Positions 8,497 through 25,765 of a DNA stretch of 64,000 nt are shown here, in pieces. The stretch comes from Eledone cirrhosa. Its lineage: Eukaryota. The position numbers and the translations under genes are program-made. Location: assembly GCA_964016885.1 (NCBI GenBank), contig OZ024745.1, forward strand, positions 68,572,001-68,636,000. Reading direction: 5' to 3'. Each line of letters starts with the position of its first letter. Position 1 is the first letter of the stretch. The notes under the pieces are model-generated. The model did not search any database. It was given only the letters and a program-made list of their open reading frames with translations, and was not told the DNA's origin.

Positions 8497-8663
8497 TTAT
8501 ACTACATATATCATATTTCCCGGCGCCGAAGACGCTTCGTCCTCGACCACGAACCCGAATTTTGACAACCAATGATTTGAAAAAAATATATATACAACCT
8601 TCGGCCTCCAGGACGTATGGTAAATTTTTGAGACTTATTTTACGAAAACGTAGCATCTTCGAC

Positions 8664-11600
8664 GCTGCTCAGCCTTAATTTTCATAAGGGAAGTATATAC
8701 TTTCGAACGTTCAACTATCTGGCAGATGGGTAAACGGTGCTGATGATAGCTAACAAGCTTGAAACTAGTACATCGTTCCTGTGTCAGTGTTGAACAAAAA
8801 GGTGACGTGGTTGCCTTAACACCGTATGGCATAAATTCAGGCTGTTCAGTTTGTTTACAAACGAACAAAGCGACGTTATAATAAGCGCCGCTAAACTGAT
8901 ACGTGCATATATGTATGTGTACCTGTATGCATATGTATGTATATATGTATATATATATATATATGTGCATGCTACTGTACGTCTGTATACATATATGTAT
9001 GTACGTATACATGCATACTTACATTTAAGTAAGTGCCATACTAAGAGTGAGAAATGAAATTTCGTTTTCATTTTGTTTCAATTTATCGTTTTCGGTATGC
9101 CTGACTGATTTAACTCACTCAACATGCAAATTAGGCTGCTCAGCCTTAATTTTCATAAGGGAAGTATATACTTTCGAACGTTCAACTATCTGGCAGATGG
9201 GTAAACGGTGCTGATGATAGCTAACAAGCTTGAAACTAGTACATCGTTCCTGTGTCAGTGTTGAACAAAAAGGTGACGTGGTTGCCTTAACACCGTATGG
9301 CATAAATTCAGGCTGTTCAGTTTGTTTACAAACGAACAAAGCGACGTTATAATAAGCGCCGCTAAACTGATACGTGCATATATGTATGTGTACCTGTATG
9401 CATATGTATGTATATATGTATATATATATATATATGTGCATGCTACTGTACGTCTGTATACATATATGTATGTACGTATACATGCATACTTACATTTAAG
9501 TAAGTGCCATACTAAGAGTGAGAAATGAAATTTCGTTTTCATTTTGTTTCAATTTATCGTTTTCGGTATGCCTGACTGATTTAACTCACTCAACATGCAA
9601 ATTAGGCTGCTCAGCCTTAATTTTCATAAGGGAAGTATATACTTTCGAACGTTCAACTATCTGGCAGATGGGTAAACGGTGCTGATGATAGCTAACAAGC
9701 TTGAAACTAGTACATCGTTCCTGTGTCAGTGTTGAACAAAAAGGTGACGTGGTTGCCTTAACACCGTATGGCATAAATTCAGGCTGTTCAGTTTGTTTAC
9801 AAACGAACAAAGCGACGTTATAATAAGCGCCGCTAAACTGATACGTGCATATATGTATGTGTACCTGTATGCATATGTATGTATATATGTATATATATAT
9901 ATATATGTGCATGCTACTGTACGTCTGTATACATATATGTATGTACGTATACATGCATACTTACATTTAAGTAAGTGCCATACTAAGAGTGAGAAATGAA
10001 ATTTCGTTTTCATTTTGTTTCAATTTATCGTTTTCGGTATGCCTGACTGATTTAACTCACTCAACATGCAAATTAGGCTGCTCAGCCTTAATTTTCATAA
10101 GGGAAGTATATACTTTCGAACGTTCAACTATCTGGCAGATGGGTAAACGGTGCTGATGATAGCTAACAAGCTTGAAACTAGTACATCGTTCCTGTGTCAG
10201 TGTTGAACAAAAAGGTGACGTGGTTGCCTTAACACCGTATGGCATAAATTCAGGCTGTTCAGTTTGTTTACAAACGAACAAAGCGACGTTATAATAAGCG
10301 CCGCTAAACTGATACGTGCATATATGTATGTGTACCTGTATGCATATGTATGTATATATGTATATATATATATATATGTGCATGCTACTGTACGTCTGTA
10401 TACATATATGTATGTACGTATACATGCATACTTACATTTAAGTAAGTGCCATACTAAGAGTGAGAAATGAAATTTCGTTTTCATTTTGTTTCAATTTATC
10501 GTTTTCGGTATGCCTGACTGATTTAACTCACTCAACATGCAAATTAGGCTGCTCAGCCTTAATTTTCATAAGGGAAGTATATACTTTCGAACGTTCAACT
10601 ATCTGGCAGATGGGTAAACGGTGCTGATGATAGCTAACAAGCTTGAAACTAGTACATCGTTCCTGTGTCAGTGTTGAACAAAAAGGTGACGTGGTTGCCT
10701 TAACACCGTATGGCATAAATTCAGGCTGTTCAGTTTGTTTACAAACGAACAAAGCGACGTTATAATAAGCGCCGCTAAACTGATACGTGCATATATGTAT
10801 GTGTACCTGTATGCATATGTATGTATATATGTATATATATATATATATGTGCATGCTACTGTACGTCTGTATACATATATGTATGTACGTATACATGCAT
10901 ACTTACATTTAAGTAAGTGCCATACTAAGAGTGAGAAATGAAATTTCGTTTTCATTTTGTTTCAATTTATCGTTTTCGGTATGCCTGACTGATTTAACTC
11001 ACTCAACATGCAAATTAGGCTGCTCAGCCTTAATTTTCATAAGGGAAGTATATACTTTCGAACGTTCAACTATCTGGCAGATGGGTAAACGGTGCTGATG
11101 ATAGCTAACAAGCTTGAAACTAGTACATCGTTCCTGTGTCAGTGTTGAACAAAAAGGTGACGTGGTTGCCTTAACACCGTATGGCATAAATTCAGGCTGT
11201 TCAGTTTGTTTACAAACGAACAAAGCGACGTTATAATAAGCGCCGCTAAACTGATACGTGCATATATGTATGTGTACCTGTATGCATATGTATGTATATA
11301 TGTATATATATATATATATGTGCATGCTACTGTACGTCTGTATACATATATGTATGTACGTATACATGCATACTTACATTTAAGTAAGTGCCATACTAAG
11401 AGTGAGAAATGAAATTTCGTTTTCATTTTGTTTCAATTTATCGTTTTCGGTATGCCTGACTGATTTAACTCACTCAACATGCAAATTAGGCTGCTCAGCC
11501 TTAATTTTCATAAGGGAAGTATATACTTTCGAACGTTCAACTATCTGGCAGATGGGTAAACGGTGCTGATGATAGCTAACAAGCTTGAAACTAGTACATC

Positions 11601-14600
11601 GTTCCTGTGTCAGTGTTGAACAAAAAGGTGACGTGGTTGCCTTAACACCGTATGGCATAAATTCAGGCTGTTCAGTTTGTTTACAAACGAACAAAGCGAC
11701 GTTATAATAAGCGCCGCTAAACTGATACGTGCATATATGTATGTGTACCTGTATGCATATGTATGTATATATGTATATATATATATATATGTGCATGCTA
11801 CTGTACGTCTGTATACATATATGTATGTACGTATACATGCATACTTACATTTAAGTAAGTGCCATACTAAGAGTGAGAAATGAAATTTCGTTTTCATTTT
11901 GTTTCAATTTATCGTTTTCGGTATGCCTGACTGATTTAACTCACTCAACATGCAAATTAGGCTGCTCAGCCTTAATTTTCATAAGGGAAGTATATACTTT
12001 CGAACGTTCAACTATCTGGCAGATGGGTAAACGGTGCTGATGATAGCTAACAAGCTTGAAACTAGTACATCGTTCCTGTGTCAGTGTTGAACAAAAAGGT
12101 GACGTGGTTGCCTTAACACCGTATGGCATAAATTCAGGCTGTTCAGTTTGTTTACAAACGAACAAAGCGACGTTATAATAAGCGCCGCTAAACTGATACG
12201 TGCATATATGTATGTGTACCTGTATGCATATGTATGTATATATGTATATATATATATATATGTGCATGCTACTGTACGTCTGTATACATATATGTATGTA
12301 CGTATACATGCATACTTACATTTAAGTAAGTGCCATACTAAGAGTGAGAAATGAAATTTCGTTTTCATTTTGTTTCAATTTATCGTTTTCGGTATGCCTG
12401 ACTGATTTAACTCACTCAACATGCAAATTAGGCTGCTCAGCCTTAATTTTCATAAGGGAAGTATATACTTTCGAACGTTCAACTATCTGGCAGATGGGTA
12501 AACGGTGCTGATGATAGCTAACAAGCTTGAAACTAGTACATCGTTCCTGTGTCAGTGTTGAACAAAAAGGTGACGTGGTTGCCTTAACACCGTATGGCAT
12601 AAATTCAGGCTGTTCAGTTTGTTTACAAACGAACAAAGCGACGTTATAATAAGCGCCGCTAAACTGATACGTGCATATATGTATGTGTACCTGTATGCAT
12701 ATGTATGTATATATGTATATATATATATATATGTGCATGCTACTGTACGTCTGTATACATATATGTATGTACGTATACATGCATACTTACATTTAAGTAA
12801 GTGCCATACTAAGAGTGAGAAATGAAATTTCGTTTTCATTTTGTTTCAATTTATCGTTTTCGGTATGCCTGACTGATTTAACTCACTCAACATGCAAATT
12901 AGGCTGCTCAGCCTTAATTTTCATAAGGGAAGTATATACTTTCGAACGTTCAACTATCTGGCAGATGGGTAAACGGTGCTGATGATAGCTAACAAGCTTG
13001 AAACTAGTACATCGTTCCTGTGTCAGTGTTGAACAAAAAGGTGACGTGGTTGCCTTAACACCGTATGGCATAAATTCAGGCTGTTCAGTTTGTTTACAAA
13101 CGAACAAAGCGACGTTATAATAAGCGCCGCTAAACTGATACGTGCATATATGTATGTGTACCTGTATGCATATGTATGTATATATGTATATATATATATA
13201 TATGTGCATGCTACTGTACGTCTGTATACATATATGTATGTACGTATACATGCATACTTACATTTAAGTAAGTGCCATACTAAGAGTGAGAAATGAAATT
13301 TCGTTTTCATTTTGTTTCAATTTATCGTTTTCGGTATGCCTGACTGATTTAACTCACTCAACATGCAAATTAGGCTGCTCAGCCTTAATTTTCATAAGGG
13401 AAGTATATACTTTCGAACGTTCAACTATCTGGCAGATGGGTAAACGGTGCTGATGATAGCTAACAAGCTTGAAACTAGTACATCGTTCCTGTGTCAGTGT
13501 TGAACAAAAAGGTGACGTGGTTGCCTTAACACCGTATGGCATAAATTCAGGCTGTTCAGTTTGTTTACAAACGAACAAAGCGACGTTATAATAAGCGCCG
13601 CTAAACTGATACGTGCATATATGTATGTGTACCTGTATGCATATGTATGTATATATGTATATATATATATATATGTGCATGCTACTGTACGTCTGTATAC
13701 ATATATGTATGTACGTATACATGCATACTTACATTTAAGTAAGTGCCATACTAAGAGTGAGAAATGAAATTTCGTTTTCATTTTGTTTCAATTTATCGTT
13801 TTCGGTATGCCTGACTGATTTAACTCACTCAACATGCAAATTAGGCTGCTCAGCCTTAATTTTCATAAGGGAAGTATATACTTTCGAACGTTCAACTATC
13901 TGGCAGATGGGTAAACGGTGCTGATGATAGCTAACAAGCTTGAAACTAGTACATCGTTCCTGTGTCAGTGTTGAACAAAAAGGTGACGTGGTTGCCTTAA
14001 CACCGTATGGCATAAATTCAGGCTGTTCAGTTTGTTTACAAACGAACAAAGCGACGTTATAATAAGCGCCGCTAAACTGATACGTGCATATATGTATGTG
14101 TACCTGTATGCATATGTATGTATATATGTATATATATATATATATGTGCATGCTACTGTACGTCTGTATACATATATGTATGTACGTATACATGCATACT
14201 TACATTTAAGTAAGTGCCATACTAAGAGTGAGAAATGAAATTTCGTTTTCATTTTGTTTCAATTTATCGTTTTCGGTATGCCTGACTGATTTAACTCACT
14301 CAACATGCAAATTAGGCTGCTCAGCCTTAATTTTCATAAGGGAAGTATATACTTTCGAACGTTCAACTATCTGGCAGATGGGTAAACGGTGCTGATGATA
14401 GCTAACAAGCTTGAAACTAGTACATCGTTCCTGTGTCAGTGTTGAACAAAAAGGTGACGTGGTTGCCTTAACACCGTATGGCATAAATTCAGGCTGTTCA
14501 GTTTGTTTACAAACGAACAAAGCGACGTTATAATAAGCGCCGCTAAACTGATACGTGCATATATGTATGTGTACCTGTATGCATATGTATGTATATATGT

Positions 14601-14735
14601 ATATATATATATATATGTGCATGCTACTGTACGTCTGTATACATATATGTATGTACGTATACATGCATACTTACATTTAAGTAAGTGCCATACTAAGAGT
14701 GAGAAATGAAATTTCGTTTTCATTTTGTTTCAATT

Positions 14736-14738
<3 letters not shown>
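8664..14738 (+). mobile_element. 471-bp tandem array (12.9 copies), each unit with a hammerhead ribozyme: candidate non-LTR retrozyme or PLE pseudo-LTR array
   Basis: Exact 471-bp period (ORF track repeats identically at +471); unit starts GCTGCTCAGCC at 8664 and the last copy ends CAATTTAT at 14738, running into (TA)n. Confidence 0.85.
8733..8777 (+). ncRNA. Minimal type I hammerhead ribozyme (copy 1 of 13; others start at 9204, 9675, 10146, 10617, 11088, 11559, 12030, 12501, 12972, 13443, 13914, 14385)
   Basis: AACGGUG-CUGAUGA-U AGCU AACA AGCU U-GAAA-CUAG-UA-CAUCGUU: 7-bp stem I (one G.U), 4-bp stem II, palindromic ACUAGU stem III; predicted cleavage after GUA at 8770. Confidence 0.85.

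Positions 14739-14830
<92 letters not shown>
14739..14830. repeat. (TA)n microsatellite between the array and the PLE 3' end
   Basis: Directly visible. Confidence 0.95.
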
Positions 14831-14831
<1 letters not shown>

Positions 14832-25599: not shown

Positions 25600-25765
25600 G
25601 CTTCTACAGGAATAGAACTAACTGTTTAATTCGGAGGAAATCACCAGGAAAGCCCTGATGATTTCCTTCGAATGAAACAGTTCTAGTCCTGTAGAAGCTA
25701 TTTCTGCATTAAAAAATTATACTCTGCTTACTTACTGTGGTTACCCCCGGTTAAACTGAGGATAC
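25600..25765 (+). mobile_element. Fold-back PLE-like terminal fragment with hammerhead core
   Basis: Arms GCTTCTACAGGA.. / ..TCCTGTAGAAGC (25600-25698); CUGAUGA (25655)-UUUCCUUCGAAU-GAAA-CAGUUCUAG-UC. Confidence 0.6.

Follow-up and report, generated by a model that had tools for sequence, protein, structure and literature searches.

The tandem array at positions 8664-14738 of the window (the whole stretch of 64,000 nucleotides that was analysed) is, judged by its sequence, one young insertion of an abundant non-LTR retrozyme family with Penelope-type ends. Each 471-bp unit carries a type I hammerhead whose stem III is the palindrome ACUAGU. By analogy with related hammerheads, we moderately favour the prediction that adjacent copies within a transcript exchange strands to form a double hammerhead, which would cut more efficiently than a single copy. 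Dimer-assisted cleavage as such is an already published concept (newt, axolotl and Penelope elements).

The array and its hammerhead

The relevant features are given in window coordinates.

8505-8665, no strand: unrelated ~175-bp repeat, bounded by terminal inverted repeats, that has lost its right end at the array junction
8664-14738, + strand: tandem array of 12.9 copies of the 471-bp retrozyme unit, with one hammerhead each
8709-8795, + strand: predicted rod hairpin with the hammerhead at its tip (87 nt, -28.9 kcal/mol, z -3.8)
8726-8782, + strand: extended stem I with stem Ia (8734-8739/8771-8776, 6 bp), an internal loop and stem Ib (8726-8730/8778-8782), supported by covariation between subfamilies
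8740-8770, + strand: hammerhead core with CUGAUGA (8740-8746), U-U mismatch (8747/8760), GAAA (8761-8764) and GUA triplet
8748-8751/8756-8759, + strand: stem II, AGCU/AGCU with an AACA loop (sequence and predicted structure)
8764-8769, + strand: palindromic stem III ACUAGU (A15.1, CUAG loop, U16.1), recurring every 471 bp
8771-9241, + strand: predicted cut-to-cut monomer RNA of 471 nt, whose ends would be paired via stem Ia
14680-14738, + strand: 59-bp Penelope-type tail, ending at the fixed unit position 423
14736-14831, no strand: (TA)n microsatellite, the insertion target

Twelve full units of the array are identical, and the 13th is identical over 423 bp. The insertion has one arm and is truncated at its 5' end, where it joins the truncated inverted-repeat element through 2 shared bases. 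This ~175-bp element, which we take to be MITE-like, is flanked by TA (2,295 candidates, about 88% identity). An assembly artefact as the origin of the array was rejected, since identical units are found on 6 contigs and other periods occur as well (459, 463, 471). The 24-mer spanning stem II to the cut has 11,837 exact copies in the 3.0-Gb genome. The unit appears to be devoid of protein coding; its longest frames (125 aa) are largely microsatellite-derived or antisense. With its 471-bp tandem unit, one type I hammerhead, ~35% GC and many dispersed loci, the family is a further example of the already known class of non-LTR retrozymes. In the main texts of a mainly open literature we found no paper that deals with this 471-bp family or describes ligation scars in arrays of retrozymes. 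Positions 28555-64000 hold a 35-kb satellite that is unrelated to the hammerhead array; its 40-bp unit occurs in 886 copies with 92% matches and has a strong purine skew.

The segment GAAACUAGUA at 8761-8770 comprises stem III and the cut triplet of the hammerhead. Written as GAAACTAGTA, it is numbered G12 A13 A14 A15.1 C U A G U16.1 A17, and we take the cut to lie between 8770 and 8771, the position given by established hammerhead numbering. As in other type I hammerheads, the core elements CUGANGA, GAAA and UH follow in this order and stem I is open-ended; H17 is A. The closing pair G10.1-C11.1 is replaced by U-U at 8747/8760. This mismatch and the GUA triplet are departures from the hammerhead consensus. 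By analogy with axolotl Amex2, which is active and has the same U-U at the base of stem II, the mismatch does not disqualify the motif. At gathering score Rfam gave no match; a weak match to Hammerhead_HH9 covers 8726-8788 (18.5 bits versus a gathering score of 52, E 0.086). Matches to microRNA families below threshold were discarded, because they derive from the TA/TG microsatellite.

The first-pass annotation had described ACUAGU as self-complementary, and this is correct: positions 8764-8769 form a 6-nt palindrome without mismatch, which occurs 13 times at 471-bp spacing, up to 14413. Its description of stem III as very short also stands, but not its drawing of two base pairs, which would need a 2-nt loop. 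The realistic form has one A-U pair over a CUAG tetraloop, and in the folding model of the monomer the probability of this pairing is 0.0. In the fetched loci 7.4% of A-NNNN-T hexamers are internally self-complementary, and the unit contains 8 perfect 6-nt palindromes outside its microsatellite. The palindrome by itself does not exceed chance; its context, with the complete core, the covarying stem I and the fold of the rod, does.

The two strands of stem II (8747-8760) are 6-nt palindromes too, UAGCUA and AAGCUU, and a swap of stem II between copies is possible. A second CUGAUGA...GAAA motif lies at 25655-25700 of the window; it belongs to a common dispersed family with similar copies at two of the fetched loci (L040 and L043).

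Conservation of the motif

The structure was compared between loci, each represented by one copy; of 39 distinct sequences, 6 with indels or shifts were omitted and 33 were used. In the proposed structure 95.1% of the cells are paired, versus 35-53% with the partners slid; the shuffle control is inflated by the relatedness of the sequences. Three pairs of stem I show two-sided changes, including one that is G-U in 14, U-G in 13 and A-U in 3 copies and another that is A-U in 24 and U-G in 7. As many copies owe these few changes to common descent, they amount to about three events. Stems I and II are both paired, with the covariation residing in stem I and none in stem II.

Variation in the core is confined to N7, a tolerant position, in a set of copies that was chosen partly with a core pattern, and A15.1-U16.1 is invariant in all 33. 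With almost no variation, stems II and III give no covariation signal. For stem III this counts against the dimer reading, since four invariant bases are weak evidence. Older subfamilies (2,197 candidates), which are ~76% identical across the unit, have retained CUAG.

A wider search used a descriptor that imposed no pairing inside stem III. Applied to the fetched loci (850,581 bases), it found 52 distinct hammerhead motifs, with 1 match in 5 shuffles; these loci were picked around hammerheads and TA-rich sites and are not a random genome sample. The motifs were grouped by eye, and the centre of stem III is self-complementary in 5 of 6 independent even-length groups, against a background of 7.4% (strict) or 22% (with G-U). 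In one clade ATATATAT, ATGCGCAT, ATATGTAT and ATGTGTAT alternate at stem III, where ATAT is swapped for GCGC or G-U variants.

Folding of monomer and dimer

According to the folding model, the ground state of the monomer has a slid stem I in which GUGCUG pairs with UAGUAC. Here C3-U4-G5 is paired with the palindrome, and the core and the cut triplet are masked. The active monomer fold lies 8.5 kcal/mol above the ensemble, in the context of the unit as well as of the circle. In the linear monomer the pairs of stem Ia have probabilities of 0.69-1.0.

For a 63-nt construct the swapped dimer was calculated at -28.4 kcal/mol, versus -27.8 for a pair of monomers in the ground state and -11.6 for a pair in the active fold. 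In the context of full units the swapped pair costs 12.2-13.1 kcal/mol relative to the ground state in 12 of 13 runs, some of them repeats on one window, and 7.2 kcal/mol in the remaining run, compared with 8.5 for one local active fold. Folding of positions 8700-9300 seemed to favour the swapped form, but other windows disagreed. Besides the palindromes, both stem I helices and the surrounding rod have to be swapped between copies. At these costs in full units, tertiary contacts would have to contribute over about 4.5 kcal/mol at each site for the paired form to win. For full-length RNA, nearest-neighbour folding gives the paired form no clear advantage.

As a test, the first-pass annotation had suggested replacing CUAG by a non-palindrome and rescuing it with complementary mutations in the partner copy. 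In folding models such loop mutants mostly behaved as its interpretation predicts. Three of four non-palindromic loops raised the cost of the swapped form from 12.7 to 14.2-19.7 kcal/mol, and complementary partner loops lowered it to 9.1-11.1 kcal/mol; GGAC, however, was not penalised (12.6 kcal/mol).

Hammerheads of the dimer type have a stem III of just 1-2 bp whose loop is self-complementary, as is the case here; the dimer idea reportedly dates from 1988. In axolotl HHR_Amex1, stem III likewise consists of 1 bp and a palindromic tetraloop, and the monomer is described as cleaving 6% in 1 h and the dimer as much better (PMC7229834). Double hammerheads have been described from newt and viroids (PMC6155905). 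A short palindromic helix III is presented as the usual metazoan form, in which multimers cleave and circles avoid cleavage (PMC4209133), and it has been stated explicitly that a tandem layout may aid dimerisation of adjacent hammerheads (PMC6765202). Thus the suggestion of the annotation that neighbouring units pair their palindromic stems III agrees with the geometry and with precedent as far as reported in these sources (PMC7229834, PMC6765202). Its further expectation, an activity that depends on copy number, finds no support beyond two copies, as array sizes vary widely and look set at insertion. The tandem arrangement plausibly matters in that a lone copy differs from a pair or a longer series, and the length of 13 copies is best read as a footprint of rolling reverse transcription.

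Insertion ends

Arrays of the family end at two fixed unit positions, 423 (with tail) and 364 (without tail), and run into (TA)n. Genome-wide there are 915 tailed and 919 untailed ends, compared with 0 and 1 for reversed-pattern controls of the two end types. Among the first matches listed for C1 (0-342 Mb), 99 are tailed ends, and for 60 of these an untailed end lies within 10 kb on the other strand, facing away. Like-like pairs are absent from the same set (0 tail-tail, 0 untailed-untailed), and chance would give 0.6. Of 61 pairs the 40 larger ones were fetched, and each proved to be a head-to-head array whose inner ends are truncated. The 61 paired insertions range from 127 bp to about 8.5 kb, apart from one span of 20 kb, with a median of 1,348 bp; 17 of them are shorter than two units.

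A tail at one end, an inverted 5'-truncated partner and a bias for (TA)n are the insertion signature reported for Penelope-like elements (PMC8557442), and the tail of Penelope is described as bounded in vitro by two reverse-transcription start sites (PMC11167929). The 471-bp family shares all of these traits, as far as the two sources describe them. The copy in the window has the tail and the TA target and lacks the inverted arm. There are also differences from the reported systems. The tail measures 59 bp here versus 30-40 bp there, and the strands are alike in start site in the in vitro work (PMC11167929), whereas among the matches listed the 471-bp family uses strictly one site per arm.

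The domains of a Penelope-like element, RVT_1 and GIY-YIG, are present at one fetched locus (L112), which carries a different hammerhead family. Broken Penelope-like frames at L112:3761-6111 and L113:3899-6471 lie near other hammerhead families, and the C-terminal GIY-YIG domain of the former contains a CxxC motif. A search for an autonomous partner found neither pLTR nor tail homology to the family in 30 of 150 scored GIY-YIG loci (10,598 candidates); one GIY-YIG locus (L138) has an inverted retrozyme copy ~1 kb downstream. Two further loci are composite. At L159:788-2034, ~1.2 kb of other sequence splits one arm of a two-armed insertion. At L051:667-830 a retrozyme tail and 5' segment are fused to another hammerhead with a long stem II, through either a nested insertion or a template switch.

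Origin of the tandem arrays

Units were compared at 40 loci that each hold at least two full ones. Outside the microsatellite, 69% of unit pairs within a locus are identical, versus 27% of consensus pairs between loci. Locus-private variants are fixed in the full units of both arms (12/12 at L172, 7/7 at L164, 6/6 at L170 and 3/3 at L155). Since private variants are shared by both arms, one monomer template, most simply a circle, was presumably copied repeatedly. It is therefore likely that array length is set at insertion, as a by-product of rolling reverse transcription of a one-unit circle.

It could be argued instead that the array grew in place by DNA duplication or unequal crossover and was kept because more copies mean more activity. 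Local amplification by unequal crossover has indeed been proposed (bioRxiv 10.64898/2026.07.22.740005), and older arrays (L103, L104 and L106) contain higher-order repeats. The homogeneity, however, extends over two inverted arms that share private variants and end at two fixed (TA)n sites, which unequal crossover fails to explain. In addition, paired insertions may be as short as 127 bp (17/61 under two units), and one array, L157, still has five copies although the hammerhead is dead in every unit. The haplotypes common to both arms appear to refute growth in place largely, and we regard it as highly improbable.

Rolling copying of a one-unit template, the reading that we prefer, has its own counter-cases. 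Arrays L021 and L186 show a three-unit periodicity, and at L205 a variant is found in two outer units but not in the inner partial unit. Consequently, not every template can have been a simple monomer. Higher-order periodicity of three units and longer was observed in L021, L186, L103, L104 and L106, suggesting multimeric templates or later duplication.

Of 94 inner ends of the arms, 15 fall within 30 nt on the 3' side of the cut and 3 within 30 nt on its 5' side (binomial p 0.008, but p 0.14 in a scan with a free window). None of the 94 lies at the cut itself (unit-frame 213-217). Run-off combined with trimming could explain the excess, as could stalling within the rod.

A deletion in L157 may bear on the template. 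At L157:729-3053 (G000:C1:184,445,9xx-184,447,8xx) 7 nt are missing in 5/5 full units; the breakpoint coincides with the predicted cut within 1 nt, and the palindrome itself is removed. Among the genome-wide pattern matches this is the sole multi-base hammerhead deletion found in consecutive units. The others are single and mostly at microhomologies; in L204, the one other case inspected, the neighbouring copy is intact. Searches with junction-scar patterns gave 16, 9 and 6 matches, and a control window gave 18, none of more than 2 nt. The deletion is a possible ligation scar copied from a circle, which fits 3' trimming before ligation. Alternatively, it could be a skip over the palindrome; it represents one event.

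Proposed retrozyme cycle and alternatives

Building on the observed motif, its conservation, the family ends and the array structure, we infer the following steps, from the slid fold to rolling copying. In a multi-unit transcript each hammerhead would be folded into the inactive, slid stem I. Copies n and n+1 would then trade the strands of stem I, and their two ACUAGU segments would form a 6-bp helix. Cleavage at both sites would release one unit whose ends are already joined by stem I pairing, and a host ligase would close it into a circle. Having one hammerhead, the circle would mostly be spared from cleavage. A reverse transcriptase/endonuclease of the Penelope type would cut a (TA)n target and copy the circle repeatedly, starting at one fixed site for each of the two DNA ends, which would result in arrays of random length. 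We tentatively propose that the arrays record this whole retrozyme cycle: excision by a swapped double hammerhead with pre-paired ends, a palindrome that acts as an off-latch in the lone circle, Penelope copying from two fixed sites and, in L157, a frozen ligation scar.

Another possibility is that the hammerhead cuts adequately as a monomer, through contacts between loops 1 and 2 or with the help of a protein, and that the inherited palindrome adds little. The extended, looped stem I is maintained by compensatory changes, and newt hammerheads are reported to cut as monomers through just such an extension with an internal loop (PMC6155905). Coral and mussel retrozymes cut efficiently as monomers, as did the invertebrate retrozymes tested up to that report, and the monomer of HHR_Amex2, with its U-U at the base of stem II, reaches 22% (PMC7229834). 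Moreover, the swapped form is unfavoured in full-length folding, and the excess of inner arm ends 3' of the cut could reflect templates nicked there. On the other hand, the motif joins a 1-bp stem III, as in the poorly active Amex1, to a U-U mismatch in stem II, folding predicts the inactive slid form for the monomer, and palindromy recurs in unrelated hammerhead families. Adequate cleavage by monomers seems rather unlikely to us, though it deserves more weight than a hammerhead whose self-cleavage is weak or dispensable. In that case long uncut transcripts would be the templates, and the hammerhead would be an element for folding or protein binding. The Anolis Penelope hammerhead is described as needing protein and as dispensable for insertion in vitro, where the Penelope protein inserts uncleaved RNA and core mutations do not lower insertion (PMC11167929); for Xenopus retrozymes, 8/9 dimers were reported inactive in vitro (bioRxiv 10.64898/2026.07.22.740005). 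Both reports also weigh against a strict dependence of cleavage on dimers. The lack of inner arm ends at the cut and the deviations of GUA and U-U from the consensus would also agree with dispensable cleavage. However, the core is invariant across subfamilies save for N7, in copies partly selected by a core pattern, private variants fixed over whole two-armed arrays require a one-unit template, and the array-wide deletion of L157 ends at the predicted cut. We consider dispensable cleavage improbable.

Comparison with known systems and implications

The closest counterparts are axolotl HHR_Amex1 and HHR_Amex2 and newt satellite 2, in which, as here, each unit of a low-GC tandem repeat contains one type I hammerhead (PMC7229834, PMC6155905). 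Amex1 shares the 1-bp stem III with a palindromic tetraloop, and Amex2 the U-U at stem II (PMC7229834). In these amphibians dimers are reported to cleave better than monomers. The 471-bp motif differs from the axolotl motifs, as reported, in combining both weak features, in its invertebrate-type genome, in the GUA triplet and in the microsatellite within the unit.

The metazoan non-LTR retrozymes described in a recent preprint also consist of tandem units with one type I hammerhead, dispersed as monomers to multimers, with Penelope-like elements in the same genome, as at L112 here (bioRxiv 10.64898/2026.07.22.740005). The association with Penelope is based there on co-occurrence and pLTR homology, and tandems are attributed to unequal crossover. 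In the 471-bp family the insertion footprint itself is of the Penelope type and points to rolling reverse transcription.

The hammerheads of Penelope pLTRs resemble the present one in their short palindromic stem III and in a proposed double-hammerhead cleavage, and circles have been proposed as templates for cDNA of more than unit length (PMC4209133). Their minimal form (min-HHR) is described with a stem II of 7-8 bp, a short stem I and no tertiary loops (PMC4209133). The 471-bp motif, with 4 bp in stem II and 6 bp plus an extension in stem I, is of the canonical rather than the minimal type, and it has no adjacent RT-endonuclease frame.

If confirmed in this family, dimer cleavage would add one example to an idea that has been restated for Penelope elements and retrozymes. 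As a very young and very abundant family with identical copies, it would be a clean substrate for the kinetics of monomer, dimer and circle. The insertion footprints make two propositions testable, namely that circular retrozyme RNA is the template of reverse transcription and that retrozymes are mobilised by Penelope proteins. Should the tentative reading of the arrays be true, the L157 scar would be in vivo evidence for cutting at the predicted bond and for a circular template, both of which published work had only proposed before.
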